From IMG/VR virus record IMGVR_UViG_3300046674_000532: 64,000 bases of DNA; one strand, written 5' to 3'. Below are positions 1,516 through 22,209 of this stretch, one piece after another. Position numbers and translations under genes: made by a program. The notes beneath the pieces are model-generated. The model was not told the DNA's origin, did no database searches, and saw only the letters and a list, made by a program, of their open reading frames with translations. Each line of letters begins with the position of its first letter. Positions within the stretch are counted from its first letter, which is position 1. The DNA is from a virus.

Positions 1516-1536
1516 AGGCATTGCACTGCAATGCCT
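1516..1536. promoter_or_regulatory. 21-bp palindrome AGGCATTGCAcTGCAATGCCT (operator-like site, copy 1)
   Basis: Perfect 10-bp arms around one central base. It lies 52 nt upstream of the 1464 start and downstream of the ssb stop. Same motif as 8337, 22189 and (degenerate) 22117. Confidence 0.6.
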
Positions 1537-1604
1537 GACGCTGAACCGGGCACAGAAAAGGGGCCCAACCCGAAGGCCAGACCCCTACGCCACACCCCAC
1601 AAGA

Positions 1605-2132
1605 TCAGAAAGGCGGCTCGTCCGAATACCCGCCATCCCCCGCACCCGCCCAAACCGACTGCCCGCCCTGCTGCGCCGCCGCACCCGACGTCGCCCACGA
1701 ATCCTCACGCCCCTCCCGCGACGACTCCTGACGCGCCTGCGCGTACGCCTGCTTACCGGCACCGCTCGAGCCGGCCTTCGTCACCTTCGCCGTCGCCATC
1801 TTCAGCGACACAGCCACCTCGTCGGCCTCCAGCTCGTAGACCGTCCGCTTCACGCCCTCACGGTCCTCGTACGACCGCTGCGACAGCCGCCCCTGGATGA
1901 CGACCCGGCAGCCTTTCACCACCGACTCGGCCACGTGCTCGGCCTGCTGCCTCCACACCGACACCGGCAAGAACAGGGTCTGCCCGTCCACCCAGGCCTG
2001 CTTCTCCCGGTCATAGGTCCGCGGTGTCGACGCCACCGTGAACTTCGCAACGCCCGCGCCAGACGGCGTAAAACGCAGCTCAGGATCCGATGTCGCATTG
2101 CCAATCACCGTGATGACGGTTTCCCCACTCAT
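1605..2132 (-). CDS. ssb: Single-stranded DNA-binding protein
   Basis: OB-fold N-terminus [35 protein letters not shown]..., Gly/Gln-rich linker and acidic tail ending DEPPF. ATG at 2132 overlaps the upstream stop (ATGA). Confidence 0.9.
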
Positions 2133-3058
2133 GCCGCTTCCTCCATCTGGTTCTTCGTCAGGGTTCGTTCCCGCGGTACGTACACGCGCCGCCACACGCG
2201 CCGGCCGTCGGCGGCCGCGCGCTCCTTGATGCGCTCCCAGGTCCGCTCCGCGGCGTCCGGGTTCATGTCCAGGCGGGCAGCTATCTCCGCGGTGGTGTCG
2301 TTGGTCCACTCGAACAGGTGGGTCAGGACTTCCCGCCGGGCAGCCCGGTCGAGGATCACGGCCTCACCCATCAGCCAGCGCGCCGCCAGGTTCCCGCCCT
2401 CCGAGACGATCGGGTCGGCAGCATCCGTCTGAGGGACAGCCTGCGGGTCGTCGATCGTGTCGTCGTCCCACGCAAGCGGCCCATCCCAGCCCTGCCGTTG
2501 TGCGGCACGCCGAGTCCGGTCCGCCACCCATTCCTTGACCCCCTGGTCACACGGGTCAGCGTTCCACCAGGCCCCGTACACGTCCCTCACGGCGCGGGCT
2601 ATGCGGGCGGTCACCTTCTCGCTGATCACGGCCTTCTGGAAGTAGCGGGAGGGGATCCCTGCCTTCCGTGCGATGGCAACCAGGTTGAAGCCGCGTACCT
2701 GGAGCGCCTGGAGACGGCGCCGGGTTCCGGTCGGATCGATGCGGGCCGCGTCAGGGAAGTTGTCCAACTTGGGCCAGTAGGCGAGGAGGAGTTCCGCGGT
2801 CTCCGTATGAAACTTCTCGCTCGGCCCCCCTCCTTCCTGTGAACCCCACAGGAGATGGTCCAGGTAGTGGGCGCAGAGACCGAAGTGCTTCTCCAGGGCC
2901 CGGACCGGCATGCCAGCAGCACGTATCCGGTTGACATGGTCGCGTACGGGCTGCGCAGGCACGAACGGCTGCCACTCGCCCGCAGCGATGAGCTGTTCCC
3001 GGCGGCTCCGCCAGCGTGACCTTGCGACCTTCTGCGCGTAGGACGTCGTGGTGCTCAT
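2129..3058 (-). CDS. HTH DNA-binding protein with sigma-70 region-4/LuxR-like C-terminus (309 aa)
   Basis: Track ORF 2129..4195 trimmed to the ATG at 3058 ([10 protein letters not shown]...); the upstream part is a Pro/Arg shadow frame. HTH-like segments are [20 protein letters not shown] and [25 protein letters not shown]. Confidence 0.65.
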
Positions 3059-3732
3059 GCCGCCACCGCCAGCTCCGCCGCCTGCTCTGCGGCGCCCTGG
3101 ACGTTCCACGCGCGGACGGCCTTGCCCAGGTAGTCCTCGCACACCTGCAAATAGGCGGCGATGTCCCGGTTCCCGACGCCCATCTCCCGCAGCTGGGTGA
3201 CGACGTCCCGGGATTCGTCCCGCACGATCTCCCACAGGGCCCGGGTGTCGCCGTTGCCGCGGCGGGGCAGGATGCCGCCCTTGCCACCCGCCCACCACAC
3301 CGCCAGACGGACGGTGACCGGCAACGCCAGGACGTCGTACTTCTGCAGCTCCACGACCATCTGCGCCGGCGTCAGACCGCGCTGCCGGAGCGGCATCATC
3401 CGCGACGACCACTCCGGGGACGCCAGCACCCGGGCCTGCCGCAGATCCGGATCCGCACCCAGGAGCGCCTCCACGCGCAGCGCACGCCGCTGCACCGTCG
3501 TCAGACCGCCGACGACACCCCACAGCATGTAACTGGACTGCTCGTACTCGAGCGCGTCGGACAGGCACGTCGTCCTCACCGGGCAGCCACGGCAGATCCC
3601 CTGAACGCGCTTCTGCGTGCCGGGACTGTCGGAGAACATGGTCTCGGTGTCGACTCCCTGGCAGCCGGAGGAGTCCCGCCAGTCGATGCTGCGCGCGGCG
3701 CGTTTCCTGGCGTGGCGGGTCGGGGTGTTCAT
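3055..3732 (-). CDS. WhiB-like Fe-S transcription factor domain fused to a C-terminal HTH-like region (225 aa)
   Basis: Cys pattern GC-x25-CRGCPVRTTC (C..CxxC..5..C), typical of the WhiB/Wbl family. A long C-terminal extension includes REMGVGNRDIAAYLQV. Confidence 0.75.
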   Translation of the reverse strand: MNTPTRHARKRAARSIDWRDSSGCQGVDTETMFSDSPGTQKRVQGICRGCPVRTTCLSDALEYEQSSYMLWGVVGGLTTVQRRALRVEALLGADPDLRQARVLASPEWSSRMMPLRQRGLTPAQMVVELQKYDVLALPVTVRLAVWWAGGKGGILPRRGNGDTRALWEIVRDESRDVVTQLREMGVGNRDIAAYLQVCEDYLGKAVRAWNVQGAAEQAAELAVAA

Positions 3733-4331
3733 GAGGTGGCTCCGGGAAGGGTCGGCCAGACCGCCTTTTCGATGGCGGCCCGGTGGGTTTTGGGCATGTC
3801 AGTGATCGGGTGGCCGATCCAGTCGCGGCCGGCGGCCATGAGGACGACGGCGTCGGCGGCGTTGTCGTCGCCTCCGGTGGTCCAGGCGGGGAAGCGTCGG
3901 GAGACCTGGTCGATGACGGCTCCCTTGGCGGCGGTGCCCTTGCCGGTGGCGTAGAGAGCGCGCTGGTTGGGGGACAGCAGGCCGACCGGGATGCTGCGTC
4001 GGGTGAGGCGGTTGTAGAGCTGCCACCAGAGCCAGCCGCGTTCGTGGGCGCCTCCTCCGCTGCGGGAGACGGCGGGGAGTTCCATGACGACGAGGTCGGG
4101 GCTGTCGATGGCGGCCAGGATGTTCTCGAGGAGGTTCTGCAGCTCGGTGAGGCGTTGCGGGTGTGGGAGTTGGGTGATGCCGGGGTCCTTGGCACGCTGC
4201 TTCTTGTAGCCGATGACTTCGCACCAGCCGCGGGTGGAGGCGAGGCCTGTGGCGGTGAGGCTGGGGTCGAGGCCGATGACGTGGGGGCCGGGGAGGGTGG
4301 TGGTGAGGGGGGCGGGGGCGGTGATGGTCAC
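3729..4331 (-). CDS. RuvC-like Holliday junction resolvase
   Basis: VIGLDPSLTATG (catalytic Asp), VVMELP (Glu) and DDNAADAVVLMAAG (C-terminal acidic pair). GTG start at 4331 overlaps the upstream stop (GTGA). Confidence 0.75.
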   Translation of the reverse strand: MTITAPAPLTTTLPGPHVIGLDPSLTATGLASTRGWCEVIGYKKQRAKDPGITQLPHPQRLTELQNLLENILAAIDSPDLVVMELPAVSRSGGGAHERGWLWWQLYNRLTRRSIPVGLLSPNQRALYATGKGTAAKGAVIDQVSRRFPAWTTGGDDNAADAVVLMAAGRDWIGHPITDMPKTHRAAIEKAVWPTLPGATS

Positions 4332-4537
4332 TGGGTGATCTCCTGGAGGGGTTGTCCGTGGCGCAGGTAGGTGGCGTGGCCGGGGCGGTGGCCGAGGTGG
4401 TGGAGGCCGCAGAATTCGCATTCGTACGGTCGGAGTCGGGGGCCGCCGATGCGTCGTATTTGGCGGGCTCGGCGTCGGGCGGTGGCGCGGTCGTAGAACC
4501 GGCTTTTACCGAGGCAGGCGACTTCGTACTCGGTCAC
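4328..4537 (-). CDS. Small basic protein with a CxxC pair (69 aa)
   Basis: Track ORF. ...YECEFCGLHHLGH... Translationally coupled on both sides. Confidence 0.5.
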   Translation of the reverse strand: MTEYEVACLGKSRFYDRATARRRARQIRRIGGPRLRPYECEFCGLHHLGHRPGHATYLRHGQPLQEITQ

Positions 4538-5547
4538 CCGGCGGGCACCGGGAAGGCGTCGTGGGTGCGCCCGTCGAGTTCGCGGCCGGCGTTCTTCTTG
4601 CCGACGCGGGCGAGTTCGATGCGGTGGCCGAGGTCATCGACCGGATCTCCAGCGAGGAGGGTGCCCTTGCTGGTGGCGCCGATGACGAGGTAGCCGGTGG
4701 GCGCGTACTCGCCCCACTGCTTGAAGAAGAACGGCACGTCTGCTTCGGCGCACTGGTCGCGCAGTGCCGTGGCCCACTGGGGTGCCATGGGGCGGGCGCT
4801 GCGGCCGGACTCGCCGCCGACGATGACCCAGTCGATGCCGTGGAACTTCTTGCAGCAGTCGCCCGCGTGGACGTAGGAGGTGTTCAGGCCGTGGCCTCGT
4901 TCGCTGCCCATGGTCCGGACGGCATGCTTGAGGTCGACGGGGCCGAGGAGCGGTTCACAGGACAGGAAGCGAACGGCGGCCGGGGTGTCCAGGAGTGCGG
5001 GGATGCGGAGGTCGGCTCGCTTCTGGTCCTCGACGCTGACGCCCAACCAGACGTTCCGGAGCGGCTTGGCGAAGTCACTCCACCACTGCGAGGTCTTCTG
5101 CTCCCGCTCGTACCGCGGCATCGGCGTCGCCTCGTCGTTGACGAGCACGGCCTGGGCCGCCTCGCATGCCAGGCGAAAGTCGCTGCTGTTGAGCAGGGCC
5201 CGCATGCGTCCGTGGCGCTTCGTCAGCACCTGGTACGTGTGCTGGGGGGTGAGCGCCATGACGGCGAAAACGCTGGCGATGTACTCGGTCGGAATGTCCT
5301 TGTGGAACAGGTCGGACATCGAGTTGACGAAGACGCGCTTCGGCTTCCGCCACCGCAGCGGAAGGGTCAGTCGTTCGGGGCGGAGGGTGACATCGAAGCC
5401 GGTCTCGAAGTGGTGGCCGGGGGTGCCGCGCCAGCGTTCGGCGAAGGTCTCGGCGTAGCAGTTGTCGCAGCCGGACGAGACTTTCTCGCAGCCGGTGACG
5501 ACGTTCCAGGTGGCGTCCGTCCATTCGATCTTGCTGGTGTCAGCCAT
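4534..5547 (-). CDS. Phage Gp37/Gp68 family protein (DUF5131)
   Basis: N-terminal signature KIEWTDATWNVVTGCEKVSSGCDNCYAE. Length 337 aa is typical of the family. Confidence 0.8.
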   Translation of the reverse strand: MADTSKIEWTDATWNVVTGCEKVSSGCDNCYAETFAERWRGTPGHHFETGFDVTLRPERLTLPLRWRKPKRVFVNSMSDLFHKDIPTEYIASVFAVMALTPQHTYQVLTKRHGRMRALLNSSDFRLACEAAQAVLVNDEATPMPRYEREQKTSQWWSDFAKPLRNVWLGVSVEDQKRADLRIPALLDTPAAVRFLSCEPLLGPVDLKHAVRTMGSERGHGLNTSYVHAGDCCKKFHGIDWVIVGGESGRSARPMAPQWATALRDQCAEADVPFFFKQWGEYAPTGYLVIGATSKGTLLAGDPVDDLGHRIELARVGKKNAGRELDGRTHDAFPVPAG

Positions 5548-5764
5548 GGGTCTTCTCCGGGGAGGGTTCAGGGAGTCCGAGGGTCTGGGCGAGGGAGCGG
5601 CGGGCGTTGTGGTCGTTGGCGGGGTTGTTGATCCAGCGGGATACGAGGGCGAGGCGTGCTCGGAGGATGGCGAGGTCGTTCTCGGCGCGGGCGAGCAGGT
5701 CGGGGTGCCTGGCCTGGAGTTGGCCAGCGAGGGTGGCGACGTAGGCCGGGTCTGCGGCGCTCAC
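5540..5764 (-). CDS. Hypothetical protein (74 aa)
   Basis: Track ORF. GTG start overlaps the upstream stop (GTGA). Helical-looking sequence. Confidence 0.5.
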   Translation of the reverse strand: MSAADPAYVATLAGQLQARHPDLLARAENDLAILRARLALVSRWINNPANDHNARRSLAQTLGLPEPSPEKTHG

Positions 5765-6348
5765 GGCTCCGGGTGCTCCTTCGCGGTCTCCTTGTCGGCG
5801 GTCCGGGCGGCGAGGCCATCGGCGATGGCGGCGAGGGGCAGGGGCTGGGTGGAGGTGGTGGTCTTCTTCGCGGCCTGGAGGGCTTCGGCGGCGGTCTGCT
5901 TGGGCGTGTAGTGGCGGGCGTGGCAGTGGGTGGCGCGGGCGGCGGCCATGCGGAGGTCGGCGGGGGTGTGGATGGGGTCGGCGTGGTGGGCGCCCTGGTT
6001 GCAGGGGGTGAAGGCGTGGAAGGGGGCGGCGGACTGGTCGTCGGGCGTGTAGGCGAGGACGGCGCCGGAGGGGAAGGCACGGGCTGCGGTGCCGTCGGGG
6101 CGCTGCTGCCAGTCGCGTACGAGCCCGTGGGGCAGGCCGTGAACTTTGGCGGCGTGGTAGGCGGCGAGTTGGAGTTCGGTGATGAACTCGGTGGTGCGGA
6201 CGGGGAGCGGGGGCGTCGGCTTGACGAGGGAGAGGGCGGCCGCGGTCTTGCGCGGGGCGCGGGTGCGCTTGGCGGTCGGTTTCTTGGCCTGGGTCTTCTT
6301 CGCTGCGGTCTTGGCGGGGGTGCTGCTGGTGCGTGCCCTGGTGGTCAT
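5761..6348 (-). CDS. Hypothetical protein with a Lys/Ala/Thr-rich basic N-terminus (195 aa)
   Basis: Track ORF. ATG at 6348 overlaps the upstream stop. The N-terminal 40 aa are histone-H1-like and basic. Confidence 0.55.
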   Translation of the reverse strand: MTTRARTSSTPAKTAAKKTQAKKPTAKRTRAPRKTAAALSLVKPTPPLPVRTTEFITELQLAAYHAAKVHGLPHGLVRDWQQRPDGTAARAFPSGAVLAYTPDDQSAAPFHAFTPCNQGAHHADPIHTPADLRMAAARATHCHARHYTPKQTAAEALQAAKKTTTSTQPLPLAAIADGLAARTADKETAKEHPEP

Positions 6349-6473
6349 GCCTGTTCTCCGTCCTGCGGATGCTGGTGCTGTTCGGTGGTGCTCCGGTGGT
6401 TGTGCTGGTGGTGGGTGATGAGGAGTGCGAAGGCGGTGAGGACGGCGGCGGCGATGCCGTCCGGCCAGGTCAC
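6345..6473 (-). CDS. Possible small membrane peptide (42 aa)
   Basis: GTG at 6473 overlaps the protease stop (GTGA). VTWPDGIAAAVLTAFALLITHHQHNH... has one hydrophobic helix followed by a His/Gln-rich tail. Below the track size cutoff. Confidence 0.3.
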   Translation of the reverse strand: MTWPDGIAAAVLTAFALLITHHQHNHRSTTEQHQHPQDGEQA

Positions 6474-7165
6474 TGCGTGGATTCCTTGGCCGGCGTGAGG
6501 GTGAGCGGCCGCAGTTTGGTGCGGTTGGCGACGAGGTTCTTGAACCCGGTGGTGTCCTGCGGGGTGTAGTCGTCGGCGTAGGTGGCGGTGGTGTAGCCGC
6601 CCCAGGTGTCGCCGCGCATGAGGGGGGAGGGGTTGGTGGTCCAGGTGTTGGGGTGGGTGAGGCCGAAGGAGTGGCCGAGTTCGTGGGAGATGACCTTGCG
6701 GCGGTAGATCTCGTGCTGGCCGTTGACGATCTGGGTGGTCCAGTTGCCGAGGGCGATGCTGGCGCGGGAGCCGTCGGCGGCGCCGGTGGCGGTGTGGCAC
6801 TGGGATGCGTTGGACCTGGTCACGGTGGACGTCAGCCGCATGATGATGGTGTGGCTGGTCGGGCAGGCCGTGGCGCCCTTGGAGATGGTGGTGGTGACGG
6901 TGACCGTCAGGCCGGTGGCTGCCTTCACGTGGGCGGCGGTCAGCTTCGCGTACGCGGTGAGCTTCGTCCGGGATGTGCTGTCGTAGAAGACGATCGTCCA
7001 GGGCTTGCTGTCGAGGTAGCGGACGCCGTTGCCGTCGCCGATGTTCCAGCCGGTTCCCTCGTAGACCTGGTAGAGGCCCGCGCCGTGGGCACGCCCGGGG
7101 GCGGCAACCACGGCGGAGGCGGCCAGGGTGAGGGCGAACGCCGCGCTGGCTATTCGGGTTCTCAT
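6470..7165 (-). CDS. Secreted metzincin-type zinc metalloprotease (snapalysin/M7-like)
   Basis: Signal peptide MRTRIASAAFALTLAASAVVAAPGRAHG. Zinc motif HELGHSFGLTH (HExxHxxGxxH) is followed by a Met-containing turn (PLMRGD). Confidence 0.75.
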   Translation of the reverse strand: MRTRIASAAFALTLAASAVVAAPGRAHGAGLYQVYEGTGWNIGDGNGVRYLDSKPWTIVFYDSTSRTKLTAYAKLTAAHVKAATGLTVTVTTTISKGATACPTSHTIIMRLTSTVTRSNASQCHTATGAADGSRASIALGNWTTQIVNGQHEIYRRKVISHELGHSFGLTHPNTWTTNPSPLMRGDTWGGYTTATYADDYTPQDTTGFKNLVANRTKLRPLTLTPAKESTQ

Positions 7166-7912: not shown

Positions 7913-8278
7913 TCAGTCGAGGTCCGGGGCGGGGTGCCGGTCGGCGCACAGGGGGCATTGGCGGATCGGCAGGTTGAAGCCGTTGGACTCTTCGATGGTT
8001 CGGGCGTCGGGGTCGGCGTTGTCGAAGACGGCCGGGCAGACGCAGGTGCACTTGCAGGGGAGGACTTCGCCGCCGTACTCGATGTGGAGGCCGGCGAGCG
8101 CGGCGACGCCGAGCATCAGGGAGTTGTATTCGCCTGCGTCGCTGGTGTCGTCGGCGCGCTGGAGGAGCTGGTCGAGGCGGTTCTGCTGGGTGGCGGTGAG
8201 GTCGCGGTAGTCGACGCTGGTGGGCGTCTTTCGGGCGTGCGTCATCAGGGCCACGGGGTCTCCTGGGGTGCAAGTCAC
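7913..8278 (-). CDS. Cys-rich hypothetical protein (up to 121 aa)
   Basis: Track ORF containing ...LPCKCTCVCPAV...RQCPLCADRH. The start is ambiguous: GTG at 8278 has no RBS, and ATG at 8245 is the alternative. Confidence 0.5.
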   Translation of the reverse strand: MTCTPGDPVALMTHARKTPTSVDYRDLTATQQNRLDQLLQRADDTSDAGEYNSLMLGVAALAGLHIEYGGEVLPCKCTCVCPAVFDNADPDARTIEESNGFNLPIRQCPLCADRHPAPDLD

Positions 8279-8336
8279 GTCGTCAGACCGGGTTTTGGGT
8301 GGTCTGTCGTTGTCGGCTTAATCACCGTACCCGTTC

Positions 8337-8357
8337 AGGCATGGCAGTGCAATGCCC
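8337..8357. promoter_or_regulatory. Near-palindrome AGGCATGGCAgTGCAATGCCC (operator-like site, copy 2)
   Basis: Same 21-bp family as 1516 and 22189 with two arm mismatches. It lies 59 nt upstream of the 8278 start. Confidence 0.55.
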
Positions 8358-8434
8358 ACGCTGTGCGGGCATGAGAAAGGCCCCGCCCCGGAAGTTCGGG
8401 TGCAGGGCCTGTGGGGGTGCGGACAGTGGGCCGG

Positions 8435-9602: not shown

Positions 9603-10004
9603 TCATTCCTCGGCGATGATCTCGGGTGCCTGACGCATCCCCTGGAACAGTTCGCCGAGCTTTCCCCGCTGCGCCTCGTCGATGATTCCCTCCGCGTGCG
9701 CGCCCTCGAGCATCCCCGTCACGATCTGCAGGGTGGTGTCGTAGGCGCGGGCGGTCCGGACGTCGGTCAGGGACAGCCGGTGCGCGTTGAACGTGATCTC
9801 GACGTGCTCGGCCAAATCGTGCATCGTGCGGGCACTGCTCTGGTGGGCGCTGTTCGCGTGGGAGTTGTTCACGTCCCGATGCCACCGCCCCCCGGGGCCA
9901 GTCCCGCTGCTCCTGCTCCCGCCGTGCTTCCTGAAGTCAATTACGGCCGCCTCGCCCTGCCCGTTCACTGCGGGCGTGGGGCGAACCGGTTCTGCTGCGG
10001 ACAT
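9603..10004 (-). CDS. Hypothetical protein (133 aa)
   Basis: Track ORF with an ATG start. The N-terminus looks disordered and the C-terminal half helical. Confidence 0.5.
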   Translation of the reverse strand: MSAAEPVRPTPAVNGQGEAAVIDFRKHGGSRSSGTGPGGRWHRDVNNSHANSAHQSSARTMHDLAEHVEITFNAHRLSLTDVRTARAYDTTLQIVTGMLEGAHAEGIIDEAQRGKLGELFQGMRQAPEIIAEE

Positions 10005-10666
10005 GGGGCGTCTCCGCTCCTCCGGCAGATATCGGGAAGGGTCTCGTGCAGCACGGCCTTGGGCCGCGCCCCGTCCCGCGTCACGGCTGCCAGTCCGAAC
10101 CGCGGGAAGCCCACTGTGGCACCACTACCGGCGTGGCGGGTAGGACAGATGCAGATTTCACCGATCATTGCGGCGCGACGTGTACAGATCCGGCCTGATC
10201 ACTCACGGGCCGCCACCGTTCCGGCCATTCCGGCGAGTTGACGTGTAAGGCCCCGCCAGGGGGTGGGGTGACGTGTTTTGCCGACAACGACTCCCGCAGG
10301 CCGGCGGGGCCTCGAGACCTCACGGGCATGCCCGCCAGATGACGGTGATTGTAGTCGCGCTATGTGCACGAAGGGGAGTGGCTTGCCCCGGCGGAAATCC
10401 CGCCTGGGGCATGACGGTACAAGGTGGGGCTGGTGCCGGGCTGGGGTGGCTGGCCGCCCTGACCGAGGTGAGGCACTGGAGGGCTGCGATCCACACAGGC
10501 CCTGCCCGGCCGGGCGGCCGGCCCTCCCAACGCGTGGGGGGTCGGCGCACCCTAGCCAACCTGCAGTGATTGCCTGAGGCAAGAGATTGGTAAGAGGCTC
10601 ACACGATCGACGGACGAAAAACCCCGACAACACTCGCAAACACGACCGAATTTTGTCGGTGTACAC

Positions 10667-10706
10667 CGCTGGCCCCGCTCCGGATGTAACCGGAACGGGG
10701 CCAGCG
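10667..10706 (-). terminator. Long hairpin immediately downstream of parB
   Basis: CGCTGGCCCCGCTCCGG-atgtaa-CCGGAACGGGGCCAGCG, beginning about 19 nt after the parB stop at 10725. Confidence 0.6.
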
Positions 10707-10724
10707 GTCTGTCTTCCCGGCGGG

Positions 10725-11828
10725 CTATACCGAGGGAACCTCCAGTCCAGCGCTGTCCGCGTACTCGTTCATCACACGCAGCGCCTTCACAAACGCACCC
10801 GTCGGCATCTTCCGGATGAGGTGCTGTGCAACGAAGTTCCCGTCGTCGTAGGGCAGGGTCCGCGGCGCAGGGTCCCCGCCGTCCTCGGCCTGCTGGACGG
10901 TCCGCGGTTCAGGGATCGGCTGCTCCGCCAGCACCACCGCGGGCGCATGGAGGTCCGGTGCGGTCTCCGGGACCGGAGCAGGGCCCGGCATCGGATCGGC
11001 ACCTGCTGGCTTGGACTTGGAGACGTCCGGAATTATCACGCCGTGATATTCGGCGGGCCCGGCCGAGCGTTCCGGCGCCGGGTATGGCGCGGGTTGCGGC
11101 GAAGCCGACCGGGCGGCCGCCTGGCTTTGAGCGGCTTCGGCGCGCGCGTCGGCCTTCTCAACCTGCTCCTGCGGGGTCAGCTTCCCGAGGTTGCGGACGT
11201 GCTCCACCCTGCGTGCACCGGTGACGAGGTCCTTCTGCAGCTCGGGGGTGAGCTTCAGCAGGGACAGCTTGGTGGAGAGCGTGGCCTGCGGGATCCCGAG
11301 CCGTTTCGCGGCCTTGAGCTGGGACCCGTAGTGGTCCACCAACTGCTTGAGCGCGTGGGCCTCCTCGAGGTCCGTCATGTCGTCGCGGTGGTAATTCGCG
11401 ATGAACGCGGCCTCGAGGAGGGTCTCGTCGGTGGCCAGCCGCGAGTTGTCGACCCTGACCGGGATGGTGGCCAGTCCGACGCGGCGGGAGGCCTCGAGGC
11501 GTCGGTGGCCGTCGATGACGACGTACTGGGCTCCGTCGTCGATGTCGTCGGCGCGGGCGGCCCGGTCACGGAGATAGGCCTCTGTCGTTCCGACGACGAT
11601 GGGCAGGATGATGCCGACCTGGCGGACGGACTCCACGGTCTCGTCGAGGTTGCGGAGGTGGTTGCGCGGGTTGTCGGGGTTGTCGCTGATCAGCGTGACG
11701 GGCAGTTCGGTGATGGCCGCGGTCGCTGCCGCGTCCCCTCCTATGGCGCTGTTGATGGCGTCGCGCCGTGGGCTGCGCCGGGCCGCGGCGAAGGCGGGCG
11801 CCGGGCCGAGGGTGTCGGCCTTGCTCAT
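10725..11828 (-). CDS. parB: ParB/Spo0J-family partition protein
   Basis: ParB N-terminal box ...YVVIDGHRRLEASRRVGLATIPVRV..., followed by an HTH (AAKRLGIPQATLSTKLSLLKL). Its start overlaps the parA stop. Confidence 0.85.
   Translation of the reverse strand: MSKADTLGPAPAFAAARRSPRRDAINSAIGGDAAATAAITELPVTLISDNPDNPRNHLRNLDETVESVRQVGIILPIVVGTTEAYLRDRAARADDIDDGAQYVVIDGHRRLEASRRVGLATIPVRVDNSRLATDETLLEAAFIANYHRDDMTDLEEAHALKQLVDHYGSQLKAAKRLGIPQATLSTKLSLLKLTPELQKDLVTGARRVEHVRNLGKLTPQEQVEKADARAEAAQSQAAARSASPQPAPYPAPERSAGPAEYHGVIIPDVSKSKPAGADPMPGPAPVPETAPDLHAPAVVLAEQPIPEPRTVQQAEDGGDPAPRTLPYDDGNFVAQHLIRKMPTGAFVKALRVMNEYADSAGLEVPSV
11032..11051. promoter_or_regulatory. parS-like palindrome AATTATCACGCCGTGATATT (copy inside parB)
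   Basis: Same ATTATCACG-N-CGTGATA(A/T)T motif as the two copies upstream of parA. GC-clamped flanks (CCGG...GGCGG). Confidence 0.55.
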
Positions 11829-12988
11829 CGGGTGGCCCCCTTCGCGACCTGCCGCATGGCCTCCGCCTGGTCGGACAGGGGTGCGTACGACAGCAGCGGC
11901 ATCCGCTTGCGGACCGCTTCCCGCTGTTCCTTCAGATCACCGATGACGGCCAGGACTCTCGGGTCACCGATGGCCTTCCAGCTATCCAGGGAGGAGGTGG
12001 CGACGTAACCGCGGCGCGAGTCGTACAAATTGACGACCAGGCCGAGGTAGTCGACGTCCAGGCTGAGGTCTTCGCACAGGGCTTCGATCTGCTGGTCGAG
12101 CATGCTGTACGCGGTGGCGGAGGAGTCCTCGGCGAGGACGGGAATGATGACGCCGGACTTGCCCTTGGCCTCGTTGCGGCGGCGGCGCGCGTAGTAGAGG
12201 GCGGCGTCCATGGCGATGCCGAGGCTGGGCGGGCAGTCCACGACGATGACGTCGTAGTCGGCCTCGAGGGGACGAAGTGCCATCTCCAGGGCGACTTCCT
12301 TCTGGAAGCCTCGCTTGTTCGCGGACAGGACGGCGATCCTCGAGTCGAGGAGGAATCCGTCGAAGCAGGCGGGCAGTACGTGCAGTCGCTTCTCGAACCG
12401 CGGATCGTCTATGACCACGACCAGGTCGCGGAGGTCTCCCTTGTCCTCGCCGCACATGTGGGAGACGAGGCTGTCGTGGTCGGGTGCGATCTGCAGGACA
12501 CCGAGTTGCTCGCTGAGGTGGCCTTGCGGGTCGTAGTCGACGAGCAGGACGCGCTTGCCCTGCTCGGCGTACGCCTGGGCGACGCCGGCGGAGATGGCGG
12601 TCTTGCCGACGCCGCCCTTCTGGTTGCAGACGACCTTGCGTTCGGCTTCTTCGTCCTGGGCGCCGTGCTGCGGGGAAGGGTTGGCGTCCAGCCACATCCG
12701 GACCGACTGCGCGAGGCCCTGGGTGTAGGAGACGGAGCGTTCGGTGCAGGCGTCCTTGAACGCGTCGTACTGGCCGGACGGGAGCCATGTGGAGAACGAG
12801 CGGGCGCCGGCCGTGTCGATGTCCGGGCTGATGCCGGGTTCGGCGCGCCATTGGGCGATGCCCGCGGTGACGGCGTCCTGGATGTCCAGGCCGAGCTCGG
12901 CGGCGCGGACCTTGAGTGCTTGTTGGAGCGCCGAGGGCAGCTTCGACGCTACCTTTTCCCGGTCTCCTTGGAGATATGGAGAGGCCAT
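11825..12988 (-). CDS. parA: ParA partition ATPase with a roughly 110-aa N-terminal DNA-binding-like extension
   Basis: Deviant Walker A NQKGGVGKTA, followed by VLLVDYDPQGH. The long N-terminal extension is as in type Ia ParA and has two RHH-like segments. Confidence 0.9.
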   Translation of the reverse strand: MASPYLQGDREKVASKLPSALQQALKVRAAELGLDIQDAVTAGIAQWRAEPGISPDIDTAGARSFSTWLPSGQYDAFKDACTERSVSYTQGLAQSVRMWLDANPSPQHGAQDEEAERKVVCNQKGGVGKTAISAGVAQAYAEQGKRVLLVDYDPQGHLSEQLGVLQIAPDHDSLVSHMCGEDKGDLRDLVVVIDDPRFEKRLHVLPACFDGFLLDSRIAVLSANKRGFQKEVALEMALRPLEADYDVIVVDCPPSLGIAMDAALYYARRRRNEAKGKSGVIIPVLAEDSSATAYSMLDQQIEALCEDLSLDVDYLGLVVNLYDSRRGYVATSSLDSWKAIGDPRVLAVIGDLKEQREAVRKRMPLLSYAPLSDQAEAMRQVAKGATR

Positions 12989-13074: not shown

Positions 13075-13093
13075 ATTATCACGGCGTGATAAT
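13075..13093. promoter_or_regulatory. parS-like palindrome ATTATCACGgCGTGATAAT (copy A upstream of parA)
   Basis: Perfect 9-bp arms around a central G, 87 nt upstream of the parA ATG. Confidence 0.6.
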
Positions 13094-13132: not shown

Positions 13133-13151
13133 ATTATCACGCCGTGATATT
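13133..13151. promoter_or_regulatory. parS-like palindrome ATTATCACGcCGTGATATT (copy B upstream of parA)
   Basis: One arm mismatch. Overlaps the stop codon of the small ORF 13137..13268. Confidence 0.55.
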
Positions 13152-16238: not shown

Positions 16239-16658
16239 GGGGTGGGCCCGACCTGCACTGTATTCGATCAGGTGTTCGGTTTCGAGGGTGGTGGTGTGCG
16301 TGTCTCGTGTGGGCTGGGGGCACTGGGTGCCGCCCAACCGGGGGGAGATAAGCCGCGAATCGCCCGACGAGGGGACCCTGAGCTGACAAGAGGGTGCCGA
16401 GTGCTGCACTATGTACCTGCCGTCCTGCGGACATGCAAAAGCCCGCTCGGTGGTGAAGGTGGTTCTGGGATGAACCTGAAGGTCGCTCGAATCTCGGGCC
16501 GGTCGCCAAACCGGATCTGAAGTTCGGGCCTTAGCTCCGAGGGCCAACTCGGAGCAGTTGCACGAAGGCCGCGCACGGTGCGCCAACACCAGCGGCCAGC
16601 GGTAGAGGAAGCGCCCCCGCCAAGGGGCACCGGACCTCCCGCTCAGGAAGTTCCTAGG

Positions 16659-17102: not shown

Positions 17103-17380
17103 GCTGCTGAGGGGGTAGTGGTGACAGGGCCCGATCGCGCCAGCGGTGTGATGTTCACGCCGGGATCGCGGGTCCACCTGTCTACGGGGTCACGGCCCCG
17201 GGTACTCTGCTCCATGTCGGCACCTTCGTCGCTGTTGAGTGTCGGCCCGGCCCCGCACCGGTTGTTGACGCAACCGGGATACTGCGGGGCCGTTCCAATG
17301 TCTTGGGCGCCCTGTCCGTCCAGACCACGTTCTGACTGGACGTCTGGGGCTAGGCGCAGCCTATCGGTTGGGCGTGTCAT
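17099..17380 (-). CDS. Questionable ORF (93 aa) with atypically low GC3
   Basis: ATG at 17380 has GGAGG about 10 nt upstream, and its stop overlaps the next start (ATGA). However, many codons end in A/T, so it may be non-coding. Confidence 0.3.
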   Translation of the reverse strand: MTRPTDRLRLAPDVQSERGLDGQGAQDIGTAPQYPGCVNNRCGAGPTLNSDEGADMEQSTRGRDPVDRWTRDPGVNITPLARSGPVTTTPSAA

Positions 17381-17430
17381 CTGTCCCCTGCCTCCCCATA
17401 CGTGTCGTCTGTACGACCAATCACACCGGC

Positions 17431-17910
17431 TCAGTGCTCCCGAGCGTCCTCGTCGTCCGCCGGGTGCCACTCCGGGGCACGCTCCGCGACCTGCCGGGAC
17501 CGGCCCGCCATCCCACCCATCGCCCGGAACCCCGCCTGCGCCAACTCGCCCTGCAACCGGGCCAGCCGGTCCCGGTTGAAGCGGGGCGCCGCCATCAACT
17601 GCCCGGCCCGCACCCCCACCACCAGCGCCCGGTCCCAGATCTCCTGCACGTCCGCCGGATCCATCCCCGGGAACAAGTCCCGCGGCAGTTTCCGCGGCGT
17701 TCCCGCCGTGTCCAACTGGGCGGCCGCGATCAGCCCGGCCAGATGCTGGCCCGTCGATGCGGCCCGCCCCGCCAGGACGAGGTCGCACATCGCGTCCTGG
17801 CCGACGTCGGCCGACCACCCGGCCTTGACGACCCCGCCAGCGGCCGGACCGCCCACGGCCCCCGTCCCGATGGAGGCGGGCAGGGAGGTGGAGTCAGGGG
17901 TGTTGCTCAT
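17431..17910 (-). CDS. Hypothetical protein (159 aa)
   Basis: Track ORF 17431..18198 trimmed to the ATG at 17910 (MSNTPDSTSL...), which overlaps the upstream stop. Confidence 0.55.
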   Translation of the reverse strand: MSNTPDSTSLPASIGTGAVGGPAAGGVVKAGWSADVGQDAMCDLVLAGRAASTGQHLAGLIAAAQLDTAGTPRKLPRDLFPGMDPADVQEIWDRALVVGVRAGQLMAAPRFNRDRLARLQGELAQAGFRAMGGMAGRSRQVAERAPEWHPADDEDAREH

Positions 17911-18833
17911 GCTGCAGCCTCCAGCGGCGTAGCGGGGAACAGGGAACACACATCGGCGACCTGGGCCAGGTCGGCTTCCATCTCGGCGAGCAGCAGATCC
18001 AACTGCCCGGGTACCTCCACGAACCGCTCCCGCAACGACAGCCGGCGCACCCGCTCCGTACGCCGCCCCGGCACACGCTGCTCGCCCTCGTCGACGTCGG
18101 CGACCGGCAGCCGGGCCAGGAGCCGCTCGAACTCCACCGCCCACAACAGCAACTGCCCGTTCGCCTCCACGGTGTGCGTCTTCACCCCCGACGGACACGC
18201 CAGCACCGACCCGTCATCCGCCACCACCAGGCCAGCGTCGACCAGGCCACGCTCCACCGCCGCGGCGAGCAGCTCCATCCGCGACGCCTCACGCGACAGG
18301 CCCATCAGCGTGACAATCGCCGACCGCTGCCAACCCGCCGTCCGCACATCCATCCGCGCCGCCGCAGCCACCCGATACGGATCCGCGTGCCCGGCCAGCG
18401 CAGCCAGAACGGCCAGCTTCTGCTCCGTCCGCAACTTCGCGTCCGCGGCCGCACCCATCACCTCGTGACGGTGCCGGATGAACGCCGTGTGCCGCTCCGT
18501 CTGCGTCTCCGCGCCCCACACCCCGTGCGGCTCCGCCAACCGCGCCACATCCCCGTCCATCACCACGGTGTTGGCGTACGCGGCGCACTGCACCATCACC
18601 GGACAGTCCAGACACACTTCGACCGCCGCGGCCTCCCGCGCCCGGCGTACCGGCTGCCTCTCCCCACCATCCACATCCGGAGCGAAATGCGCCCCCAGCG
18701 GCAGGTCCAGGTTCCCCGCCATCCGCGACGGCAGCACCGGATCCGGCGCACACCCCCGATACCGGAACCGCGGATGCGTCTCCCACGCCGCACGCGCCAC
18801 CGCCACACTCACCTGCTCACCGGTGCCCGTCAT
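17907..18833 (-). CDS. Second WhiB-like domain protein fused to a long C-terminal region with a LuxR-like HTH (308 aa)
   Basis: Cys pattern GC-x47-CLDCPVMVQC. The later segment WQRSAIVTLMGLSREASRMELLAAAVERGLV is HTH-like. Confidence 0.65.
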   Translation of the reverse strand: MTGTGEQVSVAVARAAWETHPRFRYRGCAPDPVLPSRMAGNLDLPLGAHFAPDVDGGERQPVRRAREAAAVEVCLDCPVMVQCAAYANTVVMDGDVARLAEPHGVWGAETQTERHTAFIRHRHEVMGAAADAKLRTEQKLAVLAALAGHADPYRVAAAARMDVRTAGWQRSAIVTLMGLSREASRMELLAAAVERGLVDAGLVVADDGSVLACPSGVKTHTVEANGQLLLWAVEFERLLARLPVADVDEGEQRVPGRRTERVRRLSLRERFVEVPGQLDLLLAEMEADLAQVADVCSLFPATPLEAAA

Positions 18834-19132
18834 GCCGGACCCCCTTCCGAACTCGGATCACCCGAACCACTCGAACGCGCCTGCGCGGCCAACGCCGCAT
18901 CCACCACCCGATCCGCCTCCGCCAGCACCGCCCGCTGAGCCAGCACGGCATTCATCCGGGCGCGGAACTCCTCGAGGTCCCGGTCCCGGCAGCCCTCCGT
19001 CAGCCGGGCCGCGGCCTTCTCCCGGTCCAGCAGCCGGTACAGGCGCCGCAGCCGGCGCACTGTGCAGATGGCGACGGCCGCCGCGGCGAGTGCCGCGACG
19101 GCCAGAACAATCAGTAGAAACACGGCACTCAC
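18830..19132 (-). CDS. N-terminally membrane-anchored coiled-coil protein (100 aa)
   Basis: GTG start with GGAGAAAG upstream. TM helix AVFLLIVLAVAALAAAAVAI. Confidence 0.55.
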   Translation of the reverse strand: MSAVFLLIVLAVAALAAAAVAICTVRRLRRLYRLLDREKAAARLTEGCRDRDLEEFRARMNAVLAQRAVLAEADRVVDAALAAQARSSGSGDPSSEGGPA

Positions 19133-19168
19133 CTTTCTCCAGGGAAGGGGACGGCCACCGGACCCCGG

Positions 19169-19462
19169 TCAGGGCCGGTACCAGGCGTTCGTCTTCACCA
19201 CGCTGTCCAGCGCCCGCAGGCCTGCCAGCTCGGCCGCATCCGCCCGCGCCCCGACCTCCGCGTCCGCCACCGCCTCGAGCGCCTCCGCATCACGGACCGC
19301 CTGCTCGGCCGTCGACCGCCGCCGCCACGCCCGCAGCTCCACCACGTTGTCCGGCACACTCGGACGGCGCTTCTCCCACCACAAGGCCACCGGCACCCCG
19401 AGCAGGGCCAAGAGCAGGATCGCCGGAATCACCCAGCGCTGGGCGTCAGAGAAAGGGGGCAT
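19169..19462 (-). CDS. N-terminally membrane-anchored protein (97 aa)
   Basis: ATG start. TM helix WVIPAILLLALLGVPVALWW followed by a helical Ala/Glu-rich tail. Confidence 0.55.
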   Translation of the reverse strand: MPPFSDAQRWVIPAILLLALLGVPVALWWEKRRPSVPDNVVELRAWRRRSTAEQAVRDAEALEAVADAEVGARADAAELAGLRALDSVVKTNAWYRP

Positions 19463-19774
19463 GACGGAACTCCGTTCGGCGACAGCCGGGATGAGGTGGG
19501 TGGTGGTGCGGCGGCCCGCCGGAGCGGGCCGGATGGTCAGGCGGCGGAAATGACCTCGTCCGCGCCATTCATCGGGATACCGAACCCGGCAGCGACAACA
19601 TGCTGGAGGACAACCGGAGTACGGGAGAAACAGGCAACAGGCGGGACGGCGGTCAGTTCTCTTCTTGATCCGGCTTGGGGGCCAGCCGAGATACAGCCGA
19701 AAGGGATATGCAGGACCTCGTGCGAGGAGTCGTTCCCTCTACTGGGCAGCTCGTCCTTCGGTACGGGGCGGTGA

Positions 19775-20167
19775 TCACTGCTCGCCGCCCTCGGCGCCTG
19801 CGGCCAGGAGGCCGGCAAGGCTCTGGAGGTGGGCGGCCGGGCCGAGGTCGGTGTAGAAGGAGCCTGCGGGCAGCGGGGGCAACTGCGCGGGCACGGCCTG
19901 GTGCACGAGCGGCTGGTCCGCCAGACCGAGCCCCTTACCGGCGCGCGACCACGCCTGGCACGGCGGAGACCAGATCTGCTTCTTCGACCGCCCCTTGAAT
20001 GGAGCGGTCGGGTACTGGGCGACGTCGCACTGGATAGTCAGGTGGCCCGCCGCCGCGCGGGTCTTGCACGCTGCGGTGTCCCACTCCAGCCCCACATCGC
20101 GAAGGCCAAGCAGCCGCAGCCCTTCCGACCAGCCACCAGGCCCTGCGAACCCGTCGAGGATCGTCAT
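19775..20167 (-). pseudogene. Truncated DNA (cytosine-5) methyltransferase (N-terminal 130 aa only)
   Basis: Motif I (ILDGFAGPGGWSEG) and motif IV (SPPCQAWSRAGKG) are present. ENV, the QxRxR/TRD and motifs IX-X are absent. The ORF stops after 130 aa and the 240 nt downstream have no continuing frame. Confidence 0.6.
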
Positions 20168-21123
20168 CAGGCGGCGCTCCTCTCTGCGGCGTTGGCCTGG
20201 GCGGCCTGTTCCTTCAACTGGGCGATGCGGCGCGTCAGGAGGTCCTCAACGCGCACGTCCATCTCGCCGACCTTCACCGTCTCGTCCAGAAGGCCGTGCT
20301 TCCTGGCGTCGGCAAGGTTCTGCTCGCACGACAGACGGTTCTTCCACCCGGCGTTGATTTTCTCCTTGAGGCCTTCCAGCGTGGTCCCCGCAGCCTGCTC
20401 CTGCCGGTGCACGTCCTCCCGCTGCTCTTCCGTAGGACTGGCAGGCACGGCATCTACCGCTTCCTGCTTCGCGGCCGCTACATCCGGCTCGGCCTCCACC
20501 TTGTCGTCCTTGAACTCGGCCTCCTTCGGCGCCTTCCAGTACGGAAGCGACGACTGCACCACCGGGGACAGACGGCCCTTGTTGTACAGGGACAGGCCGA
20601 ACTGATCACCCAGGTTGGTGGCCGCCCGCTTCAAGGCCTGCGAGTCGGCGGTCTTCAGCGCCAGGTCGTGAGCATCGGCCCGGGACGGCTGGTTCGTGGC
20701 GTCCCCGGTGGCGATGCCGTGCCAGTGGCCCAGCTCGATCCCGTCCACCTTCACCGACAGGCGAACCGCGACGCGGTAGATGACCGTCCACGCATCGAAG
20801 GGGTTCCCGTACGGGCGACCGTTCTTGTCCTTCTTCTGGTGGTCCGGGATGCAGGTCTCGGCGATCAGCGTCGACTCCAGCAGGTCGGTGTCGTGCCCGC
20901 CGAACCCGAAGATGCGGATCAGGTAGCGCCGAATGTCCCAGGCCTCCATGTGCGCGAAGCCCTTGCCGTCCGAACCCACCCGGTCCGGGTCAACGGGGCG
21001 CAGCAGCTGGGCGATCTGGAGGTCGGACAGGGTGCCCAGGCGGCGGGCCGGGGCCTGGTTTTGGGTGTGCGAGGTGGGGCCCTCCGCCGTCGTGCTGGCG
21101 AGGGCCTCGGTGGCCGGGGCCAT
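20167..21123 (-). CDS. Rad52/Sak-type single-strand annealing protein
   Basis: EAWDIRRYLIRIFGFGGHDTDLL and AHDLALKTADSQALKRAATNLGDQFGLSLYN parallel the Rad52 motifs (..NE.FG..GW.. and ..A.TD.LKRAL..FGN.LG). Confidence 0.75.
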   Translation of the reverse strand: MAPATEALASTTAEGPTSHTQNQAPARRLGTLSDLQIAQLLRPVDPDRVGSDGKGFAHMEAWDIRRYLIRIFGFGGHDTDLLESTLIAETCIPDHQKKDKNGRPYGNPFDAWTVIYRVAVRLSVKVDGIELGHWHGIATGDATNQPSRADAHDLALKTADSQALKRAATNLGDQFGLSLYNKGRLSPVVQSSLPYWKAPKEAEFKDDKVEAEPDVAAAKQEAVDAVPASPTEEQREDVHRQEQAAGTTLEGLKEKINAGWKNRLSCEQNLADARKHGLLDETVKVGEMDVRVEDLLTRRIAQLKEQAAQANAAERSAA

Positions 21124-21206
21124 GAGGTCTCTCCTATGAGGTTGTGCGAAGTACGGGGCGCGGGGCCCGGCTGGTGTCGGCGTCCAGGCCGACCCCGCGC
21201 AGACGG

Positions 21207-22100
21207 CTATGCGGCGGGCTCGCCGAGGCGGTCCTTCAGGATCGCCACCGCGATCGAACCGGGGAACATCTTGTAATCCAGGGCCTCAGATACCCGCGGC
21301 TCCACGTCACGGAGCTGCTCGAGCAGGTCGGCGTTCACCCGGACCGGCAGCCACGTCGCATCGTCCAGCGACCGGCTACCCGGCGCCGCCTTCGACGGAC
21401 GCGGCGGCAGCCACTCCCCGCCGGCCAGCGAACGGATCCCGTCCTCCAGAACCTTCTGCAGCGCCACGCCCTGACGGCCGGACTCGGCAATGAGGTGCTG
21501 CTCCAGGGGCTTCAGGACCCGCAGCTTCAGCATCTCCACACCGACCGGACTGTCGACGCCCAGCTCCTCCGTCATCCACAGCAGAGCGATACCGCCCTCC
21601 GTGATGGGATAGCCGGCCTCCTCCGACAGCGACGCCAGCCGCTCCTGCACCTGCGCCCGCAGGTCCGCGTCGATGTTGACGGTCATCACCGCGCGGCCGG
21701 GGCGCCGTTCACCCTTCAGCCAGCGCTTCGTCTTACGCTGCGGCGGCAGCCACCTGCCCTCCAGCACCAGTCGGTAGCCGTCCTCGACCACATCGGTCAG
21801 CAGCACACCCAGCTCGTCCGCAGCCGCCCTCAGGGCGTCCCGCATATCCGTGTTCGTGGTGATGGTCAGCGGCGACTTGCCGGGCCCGTCAGCGGGAGCG
21901 GCGTCACGCAGCAGCGTCCACCCGCCCCGCACCAGGACCGCCCGGACATCGGCAGCCGAGTCGGGATGGCCGGCGTCCTCCAGACGCTGGGCGGCGAGGG
22001 TCAGACGGTCGTGGATGGGACGGGCCACGTGGAGCGGTCCTCTCGGATGGCACCTCCCCGGCTCCTTGCGGGCCGGCGGGTGCGTGGGGGCGTTGGCCAC
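21207..22100 (-). CDS. Hypothetical protein with three ribbon-helix-helix-like repeats (297 aa); candidate DNA-binding regulator
   Basis: GTG at 22100 has GGAGGA 7 nt upstream. Modules recur as L-T/N-I/V-x-x-D/N-x-D/A-L-R...L (LTITTNTDMRDALR, MTVNIDADLRAQV, LPVRVNADLLEQL). Confidence 0.55.
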   Translation of the reverse strand: MANAPTHPPARKEPGRCHPRGPLHVARPIHDRLTLAAQRLEDAGHPDSAADVRAVLVRGGWTLLRDAAPADGPGKSPLTITTNTDMRDALRAAADELGVLLTDVVEDGYRLVLEGRWLPPQRKTKRWLKGERRPGRAVMTVNIDADLRAQVQERLASLSEEAGYPITEGGIALLWMTEELGVDSPVGVEMLKLRVLKPLEQHLIAESGRQGVALQKVLEDGIRSLAGGEWLPPRPSKAAPGSRSLDDATWLPVRVNADLLEQLRDVEPRVSEALDYKMFPGSIAVAILKDRLGEPAA

Positions 22101-22116
22101 GCCAGTTTCCTCCAAA

Positions 22117-22137
22117 CGGCAGTTCAATGCCATGCCC
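22117..22137. promoter_or_regulatory. Degenerate copy of the 21-bp palindrome (cGGCAgTtCAaTGCcATGCCc)
   Basis: About 15 of 20 arm positions match the consensus. It lies 17 nt upstream of the 22100 start. Confidence 0.4.
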
Positions 22138-22188
22138 GGAGGCTCTGGCAGTGGGGCGGCACCCCAACAACCCCAACGATACTGCCAC

Positions 22189-22209
22189 AGGCATTGCAAT
22201 GCAATGCCT
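22189..22209. promoter_or_regulatory. 21-bp palindrome AGGCATTGCAaTGCAATGCCT (operator-like site, copy 3)
   Basis: Perfect 10-bp arms. Central in the divergent intergenic region 22101..22253, 45 nt upstream of the 22254 start. Confidence 0.6.

Follow-up and report, generated by a model that had tools for sequence, protein, structure and literature searches.

The 64,000-nucleotide stretch of virus record IMGVR_UViG_3300046674_000532 (the window, i.e., the whole of the DNA analyzed) is about two thirds of a pZL12-like Streptomyces plasmid-prophage, and its early genes are preceded by copies of a dispersed 21-bp palindrome, AGGCATTGCA-N-TGCAATGCCT, which is real and regulatory. We propose that this palindrome is the form taken in this element by an operator found across the family, which would lie in the -35 region and spacer of promoters of the host sigma-70 (HrdB) type. 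That an operator sits within the early promoters and is read by a symmetric protein encoded by the element we hold to be highly probable; the explanation as a whole, in which operator cassettes are repressed through the -35 element and a tandem ribbon-helix-helix (RHH) protein is the most likely reader, is probable. What is new here is a familiar type of operator regulon in pZL12-like elements, with an unusual pair of candidate regulators.

The palindrome (pattern AGGCATTGCANTGCAATGCCT) was matched at three places in the window, and one degenerate copy was also found:

1516-1536: site 1, AGGCATTGCACTGCAATGCCT, 0 mismatches.
8337-8357: site 2, AGGCATGGCAGTGCAATGCCC, 2 mismatches.
22189-22209: site 3 (operator O1), AGGCATTGCAATGCAATGCCT, 0 mismatches, perfect 10-bp arms.
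22117-22137: degenerate copy (operator O2), CGGCAGTTCAATGCCATGCCC, 5 mismatches, 16 of 21 positions in agreement.

No palindrome match was obtained in 100 dinucleotide-preserving shuffles of the window. The degenerate copy is the sole further match in the 64 kb when up to 6 mismatches are allowed, and the expectation from the shuffles at up to 5 mismatches is 0.03 matches. No more sites were present in the 10 kb to the right of the window (extension locus L061) or in the 3.5 kb to its left (L064), and a scan of IMG/VR with the exact motif returned one unrelated low-GC contig only (L001), so that the exact sequence is peculiar to this element. According to the gene calls, all four copies are inside intergenic gaps of the leftward gene block, ahead of genes. 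The start codon lies 51 nt from site 1 (gene start at 1464), 82 nt from site 2 (8254), 44 nt from site 3 (22254) and 16 nt from the degenerate copy (22100). The initial annotation of this DNA had described the positions and mismatches of the copies correctly, and had placed them in the intergenic gaps of the early block, with which the gene calls agree; its distance of 17-60 nt to the start codons gives way to the values measured here.

When the three full sites were read toward the downstream gene, they aligned well past the limits of the palindrome, and the order of the cassette was terminator (sites 1 and 2), palindrome, 7-8 nt and TAnnnT. A TTGCAN hexamer is located within each full palindrome, and 17 nt (sites 1 and 2) or 18 nt (site 3) separate it from the -10 element. 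The features of the cassettes are as follows:

22189-22209, both strands: operator O1 (site 3), with TTGCAA at 22194-22199 (+) and TTGCAT at 22204-22199 (-).
22218-22223, + strand: predicted -10 TATGGT of the rightward promoter of the WYL gene, 18 nt after TTGCAA.
22176-22181, - strand: predicted -10 TATCGT of the leftward early promoter, 17 nt after TTGCAT.
23006-23039, + strand: terminator closing the short rightward unit (RNA fold, z=-2.6).
8378-8410, - strand: intrinsic terminator ending the upstream leftward unit, directly before site 2 (terminator scan; RNA fold, z=-3.4).
8337-8357, - strand: operator of site 2, with the -35 hexamer TTGCAC at 8352-8347.
8324-8329, - strand: predicted -10 TACGGT of the site-2 promoter, 17-nt spacer (sequence and alignment of the three cassettes).
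1559-1586, - strand: intrinsic terminator after the SSB gene, directly before site 1 (12-bp stem and then a T-run; RNA fold).
1516-1536, - strand: operator of site 1, with the -35 hexamer TTGCAG at 1531-1526.
1503-1508, - strand: predicted -10 TACGGT of the site-1 promoter, 17-nt spacer (sequence).

The palindrome of site 3 supplies the -35 hexamers of two back-to-back divergent promoters, one for the WYL gene that starts at 22254 (+) and one for gene 21207-22100 (-). The short rightward unit consists of the WYL gene and a 91-amino-acid (aa) open reading frame (ORF) at 22714-22989. The site-2 promoter is predicted to drive gene 7913-8254 and the genes downstream of it, and the site-1 promoter gene 853-1464 and genes past the left end of the window, where the operon continues in L064. 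In the region between the RHH gene (21207-22100) and the recombinase gene no terminator was found, but only a GC-rich hairpin that lacks a U-tract (z=-0.05). If transcription starts 6-8 nt after the -10 element, the palindrome would span from about -41 to -21, with its center near -31, which from general promoter knowledge is the position of a repressor rather than of an activator. The initial annotation had seen no sigma-70 -35/-10 pair in these sites and had considered an early activator as the reader; the arrangement of TTGCAN, 17-18 nt and TAnnnT is present at each of the three sites and, at site 3, in both directions, and an activator is unlikely for a site centered near -31.

The same position was then compared in related elements. 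Loci with a relative of the WYL protein were taken from IMG/VR, GTDB genomes and metagenomes (the metagenome scan added only two usable loci), and a TTG-type core was recognized at the position in 34 of 37; these 34 loci are the comparison set, and the other three carry degenerate versions. Toward the gp30-like gene, i.e., the relative of gene 21207-22100, a TAnnnT was found 17-18 nt from the TTGC hexamer in 34 of the 34 loci, and toward the WYL gene in 28 of the 34, with a background of 0.24% at random positions. The consensus of the palindrome in this position is yATTGC-N3/4-GCAATr, and the flanks, the spacer and sometimes the core vary from locus to locus. Where a genome has remote sites, they carry that genome's own variant, as was observed at 2-5 sites each in the window, pZL12, CP042280, CP109332 and two IMG/VR contigs; the variants of the relatives are:

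pZL12: CGTATTGC-N3/4-GCAATACG, five sites (564, 6228, 21587, 70202 and 75826), each beside a TAnnnT.
CP042280.1: CCTGTTGCGnnCGCAACAGG (CCTGTTGCG..CGCAACAGG), four sites.
CP109332.1: unusual core ATTGTG..(C/T)AC, three sites.
Contig of loci L002/L010: TATTGCGCGCGCAATA, two sites, O1 and the site-2 homologue.
Contig of loci L055/L011: CTATTGCGTACGCAAT, at both places.

Cassettes homologous to site 2 and carrying the palindrome of their own genome were observed in L010-L013 and CP109332, and sites syntenic with site 1, after the SSB gene, in pZL12 (564-576) and CP109332 (29488-29507); hence both the site-1 position (after the SSB gene) and the site-2 position (after the terminator that precedes a 113-aa gene) are syntenic across these genomes. 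The promoter-distal arm is kept at the unidirectional promoters, where it has no promoter role, and the bases outside TTGC do not vary among the sites of one genome but do so from genome to genome; these two facts argue for a symmetric reader, encoded by the element, that would co-evolve with its sites, and the comparison points to the palindromes being a coordinately evolving operator set. Both the position and a genome-specific palindrome are kept in 34 relatives. The spacers of pZL12 are mixed: the divergent promoter has one of 4 bp, and each of the four remaining sites has one of 3 bp. Two of the pZL12 sites fall within the annotated starts of gp012 and gp094, which suggests that the start codons of these genes are mis-annotated.

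In the mechanism that we propose, the leftward units would begin at sites 3, 2 and 1, the second and third each after the terminator of the preceding unit, and site 3 would also head the WYL unit. A two-fold symmetric phage-encoded protein would bind the palindrome and block access of the RNA polymerase to the -35 element, so that all the units, including that of the regulator's own promoter, would be shut or throttled together. The concerted change of flanks and spacer across the sites of one genome would be the behavior of an immunity or specificity determinant.

The candidate that we favor as the reader, although tentatively and at somewhat less than even odds, is the protein encoded next to site 3:

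21207-22100, - strand: gp30-like candidate reader, 297 aa, pZL12 gp30 family.

The AlphaFold2 (AF2) model of this protein has a mean predicted local distance difference test score (pLDDT) of 78, with 80-93 in the repeats, and the predicted fold begins with a disordered N-terminal tail, basic and rich in Arg and Pro, and continues with a helical region and four beta-alpha-alpha (RHH) units. The best PDB matches obtained with Foldseek were chains E, F and G of the F-plasmid relaxosome (probability 1.0, E only 0.017). The relaxosome entries hold three TraY molecules, and a TraY monomer forms the whole RHH dimer fold in one chain (PMC12117103). When the profiles were compared with hhalign, units 1+2 matched units 3+4 (99.6%, E=6e-25), which indicates that the long forms are a duplicated two-RHH module; many gp30-like relatives have a single module only. 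The protein is therefore predicted to be a duplicated TraY-like tandem RHH protein. It gave no NCBIfam or PHROG match and no relevant PDB sequence match. The gp30-like family is fast-evolving, with 19 database matches versus 349 for the WYL protein, whose relatives are mostly on contigs of ~90 kb.

Over the 34 loci, operator similarity tracks the identity of the gp30-like protein (Mantel r=0.36, p=0.0002; with WYL identity partialled out, r is again 0.36), and so does the N3/N4 spacer class (r=0.33, p=0.0002). The identity matrices of the WYL and gp30-like proteins are uncorrelated (r=0.08), which indicates that recombination separates the two genes; the operator, which tracks gp30-like identity only, stays with the gp30-like gene, even though O1 lies nearer to the WYL gene. 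Between pZL12 and L003, for instance, the O1 and O2 sites are almost the same and the gp30 proteins are 94% identical, whereas the WYL proteins share only 40-46% identity. In every relative, the promoter and leader of the gp30-like gene itself are bracketed by O1 and O2, an arrangement typical of autoregulation. Gene 21207-22100, the regulator listed first in the initial annotation, is thus also the one favored here. A tandem RHH protein might bind as one chain with two TraY-like pseudo-dimer modules, one for each half-site, or as two single-module chains. We also considered the RHH beta-strand residues as a specificity code, which looked suggestive by eye in a table, but was not significant with a control for overall identity (p=0.11 and 0.06).

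The second site of the divergent region is placed differently from the three cassettes:

22117-22137: operator O2, degenerate, in the predicted leader of the leftward transcript, abutting the Shine-Dalgarno (SD) sequence of gene 21207-22100.

O2 is present in the relatives too, always adjoining the SD of the divergent gene, and it is closer to its cognate O1 than to foreign O1s (0.71 versus 0.60 identity, permutation p=0.0005). The O1-O2 distance ranges from 72 to 83 bp across the relatives, and hence there is no fixed helical phase. In the proposed mechanism O2 would be a weaker second site in the leader of the regulator, acting through a roadblock or by looping. In addition, the - strand RNA of 22101-22170 can fold so that the SD GGAGG pairs with CCUCC (22143-22147) and O2 is left in a loop (-34 kcal/mol, z=-3.2), and this fold could provide a translational control layered on the operator.

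Several points weigh against this reading. The RHH assignment depends on a predicted structure and on the weak Foldseek E-values given above, and neither the whole protein nor its single units matched any Pfam family, including the RHH ones, at E<=10. Physical linkage could account for part of the operator-gp30 correlation, although it is the WYL gene that lies nearer to O1, and the lack of significance of the beta-strand residues counts here as well. L003 and L004 share the half-site CGTATTGCA despite a gp30-like identity of 29%, and the mixture of N3 and N4 spacers in pZL12 is awkward for a rigid reader. The gp30-like gene comes first in the early operon, where it has the 'Cro position', and the protein that maintains lysogeny may be another one. 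The promoters are predicted from sequence geometry, and a generic promoter scan did not call them (8 of 12 consensus positions, with a threshold of 9). Finally, other helix-turn-helix (HTH) proteins, such as the GerE/LuxR-like protein of the site-1 operon, may be the reader.

The last point leads to the alternative that survives best, although we consider it rather unlikely: the same operator-in-promoter layout would be read by another phage protein (a GerE/LuxR-type protein, a WhiB-like protein or an unrecognized regulator), and the RHH protein would be, for example, a Cro-like or antirepressor factor. A GerE/LuxR-type (Sigma70_r4-like) HTH protein of 124 aa is indeed encoded at 13517-13891 of L064, ~2 kb past the left end of the window; its gene lies in the operon of the site-1 promoter and has homologues in pZL12 (gp110) and L012. 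LuxR-type dimers bind palindromes of ~20 bp. The GerE-like protein is a possible middle/late regulator or alternative operator reader, and the two observations just discussed, i.e., the non-significant covariation at the level of the strands and the half-site common to L003 and L004, are in line with a reader other than the RHH protein. What speaks against this alternative is that the operator tracks the gp30-like protein over 34 loci, where the comparison for the GerE-like protein is limited to 3 usable genomes, and that O1 and O2 bracket the gp30-like promoter and leader in the way of an autoregulated gene.

The other protein encoded at the divergent promoter was analyzed in the same way:

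22254-22703, + strand: WYL-domain-only protein, 149 aa (Pfam PF13280, E=1.6e-5, above the cut-off).

This protein could be envisaged as the palindrome-binding immunity repressor, autoregulated from the rightward promoter as is lambda CI. Its gene is on the lysogeny side and is transcribed away from the early genes and toward the integrase, the family is labeled 'transcriptional regulator' or 'YafY' by some sources, and the protein is highly conserved, as is the ATTGC..GCAAT core. We nevertheless regard this as improbable. The AF2 model (pLDDT 68) contains one helix (residues 13-21), a beta-barrel and a C-terminal helix, and in it no N-terminal (winged) HTH was found; Foldseek aligned the protein with the ligand-sensing WYL part of BrxR, PafBC, CapW and DriD, not with their DNA-binding domains. 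Furthermore, WYL identity was uncorrelated both with the similarity of the operators (Mantel r=0.03, p=0.35) and with the spacer class (r=-0.05), and pZL12 and L003 have the same operators with the divergent WYL proteins mentioned above. With no HTH and no co-variation with the operator, the WYL protein was rejected as the specificity determinant, and its listing as a candidate regulator in the initial annotation is not upheld; it is a possible sensor partner.

The HTH-less WYL protein and the four-unit tandem RHH protein were observed as a conserved divergent pair in all 34 related elements. By analogy, the pair could be a split sensor-effector switch, in which the WYL protein would sense a nucleic-acid or nucleotide signal and act on the tandem RHH protein, and so flip all the early promoters; the signal could be single-stranded DNA (ssDNA) after DNA damage, as with the WYL domains of PafBC, DriD and CapW. 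We offer this as a speculation that is more likely to be wrong than right by a wide measure. If it were true, the switch would be an induction pathway independent of LexA/RecA for Streptomyces plasmid-prophages, and its components would be a combination new to phage immunity regions.

The three remaining explanations are very improbable. In the first, which is the least weak, no dedicated regulator exists, and the palindrome is an overlapping pair of -35 elements copied round the genome as a promoter cassette. The TTGC on both strands does give the -35 hexamers of both site-3 promoters, and sites 1 and 2 have common flanks beyond the palindrome. On the other hand, sites 1 and 2 and their homologues have a -10 element on one side only, with a terminator on the other, and the full palindrome is still kept; the AGGCA / TGCCT bases are irrelevant to sigma, yet they are constant within a genome and different between genomes; and O2 is located downstream of the promoter.

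It is scarcely credible, in turn, that the palindromes are dispersed parS centromere sites for the ParB protein of the element. The linear plasmid-prophage N15 has partition sites close to phage promoters, and the element studied here encodes ParA (11825-12988, Pfam AAA_31/CbiA) and ParB (10725-11828, ParB_N and HTH_ParB), belongs to a family of ~90-kb plasmids and has 16-21-bp palindromes spread over 20 kb. The studied palindromes are, however, locked to the -35/-10 geometry, and the parAB region has a separate palindrome of its own. This second palindrome, TTATCACG-N-CGTGATAA, has exactly three copies, at 11033-11049 (inside parB) and at 13076-13092 and 13134-13150 (upstream of parA), with no chance matches expected, and in both of these locations, parB and the region upstream of parA, pZL12 carries another palindrome, GGTTTACCGCGGTAAACC. 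The copies of TTATCACG-N-CGTGATAA are probably parS sites or a ParB operator, and with such separate, co-varying parS-like palindromes at parAB, ParB was rejected as the reader of the 21-bp sites.

Equally hard to credit are RNA hairpins that would serve as processing, stability or termination signals in read-through transcripts: a stable 9-bp stem with a 3-nt loop is predicted, and sites 1 and 2 would be transcribed by read-through from the upstream units, but site 3 is upstream of both predicted starts and probably untranscribed, there is no U-tract and no Rfam match, O2 is a poor hairpin, and the fixed distance of 17-18 nt to TAnnnT is a constraint at the level of the DNA. The initial annotation had likewise preferred a DNA operator for a symmetric phage protein over a hairpin, and the conserved position and the concerted variation in the 34 relatives, together with the probably untranscribed site 3, support that choice.

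The element that carries the sites has a G+C content of 68-71% throughout the window, and in the codon-bias gene call nearly all its genes are on the - strand. The terminase, portal, capsid and tail genes extend from ~58 kb down to 27 kb, and are followed by these regions:

25953-27101: integrase.
22254-25958, + strand: short block of + strand genes.
22100 to 1, - strand: leftward block, 22 kb.

The leftward block encodes a Rad52/Erf-type recombinase, WhiB-like proteins, ParA/ParB, a DUF5131 protein, a RuvC-like resolvase and SSB. The assignment of the window to a pZL12-like plasmid-prophage is based on the collinearity with pZL12, on the plasmid-borne WYL homologues and on the nature of pZL12 itself. 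A megablast search of the GenBank phages gave only an 89-bp match, to pZL12, and relatives were found through their proteins instead; the sole GenBank phage relative is the Streptomyces plasmid-phage ZL12/pZL12, and its gene order is collinear with that of the window. Homologues of the WYL protein are on Streptomyces contigs of 88-102 kb, two of which were deposited as complete circular plasmids. pZL12 is a plasmid that is also a phage, and it has ParAB (PMC4487206). No Rfam family was matched anywhere in the window.

Other parts of the window are recorded here as observations in their own right. Downstream of parB, 852 nt (9873-10724) are without a convincing gene and contain a hairpin with 19-bp arms at 10665-10708 and a small palindrome, ATTGCCTGAGGCAAG, at 10569-10583, outside any promoter cassette; this region may hold an origin, a small gene that the calls missed or a non-coding RNA. 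On the + strand, the 65-aa ORF at 23116-23313 has a Cys-rich pattern, C..C..GRxLTD..S..GxGxxC, and no NCBIfam match; the pattern is of a kind seen in small proteins of actinobacterial plasmids and phages. The 294-aa ORF at 23707-24591 (+) has a strong coding signal and no Pfam, PHROG or NCBIfam match; by eye it resembles a tyrosine-recombinase core, and it is kept beside the WYL unit in L002 (54% identity).

The pZL12-like elements, which are plasmids and phages at once, are common in Streptomyces and under-studied, and in the literature we found no paper on their regulation or on the choice between the plasmid and the phage states. The cassettes amount to a testable wiring diagram, with three to five promoters, one palindromic operator and a named candidate regulator, and the natural operator variants offer Streptomyces engineering a ready series of orthogonal repressor/operator/promoter parts. 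If the pairing of the tandem RHH and WYL proteins is functional, it would be a new type of phage genetic switch and would give a role to HTH-less WYL proteins.

Among the known systems, the initial annotation had pointed to phiC31, a temperate phage of Streptomyces in which a conserved inverted repeat (CIR) at the early promoters is bound by the gene c repressor. The likeness in function stands, but no homologue of the phiC31 repressor was found in the window (best tblastn E=0.3), and the phiC31 genome has neither the palindrome (at up to 4 mismatches) nor an ATTGC-N3/4-GCAAT, a comparison that did not include the published CIR consensus itself. The phage lineages are unrelated, pZL12 being the only GenBank relative of the element. 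As in the plasmid-prophages P1 and N15, the element is extrachromosomal with ParAB, and sites of one protein are scattered at several promoters. The dispersed operators of P1 are bound by C1, an unrelated protein, and are asymmetric, and the dispersed SopB sites of N15 are centromeres; here, the operators are palindromic and the parS-like palindromes are separate. The divergent neighbor has the WYL fold of BrxR, CapW, PafBC and DriD, in which it acts as the sensor of ssDNA or other ligands that switches a DNA-binding domain; unlike them, the neighbor lacks an HTH: it has no N-terminal winged one at all, and its link to the RHH protein is a conjecture.

In the cluster A mycobacteriophages (L5 gp71 type), one repressor binds many dispersed sites, and new immunity specificities arise as the repressor and the consensus of its sites co-evolve (PMC6550527, PMC9283540). 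The system described here resembles them in being an actinobacteriophage regulon of dispersed sites that would co-evolve with a repressor. The cluster A stoperators are asymmetric, 13-14 bp long and oriented with transcription; a genome has dozens of them, and a monomeric HTH repressor stops elongation there, whereas here 3 full palindromes and the degenerate O2 are present in 64 kb (5 sites in the whole of pZL12), they are fixed at the -35 region, and the candidate is not an HTH protein. A parallel in architecture is offered by RHH proteins. P22 Arc and Mnt, CopG and omega bind ~17-21-bp operators of two half-sites through beta-ribbons in the major groove, over promoters and with autoregulation. 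The palindromic operators of ~21 bp over promoters, together with the predicted RHH candidate, are of this type, and the best structural matches of the candidate are chains of F TraY, in which one polypeptide forms the whole RHH 'dimer'. The candidate departs from the RHH repressors and TraY in that its chain is predicted to contain four RHH units as well as an Arg/Pro-rich tail and a helical domain, and in belonging to no RHH Pfam family, and the regulon departs from the Arc/Mnt type in that its operators are dispersed over three to five promoters instead of being confined to one locus.

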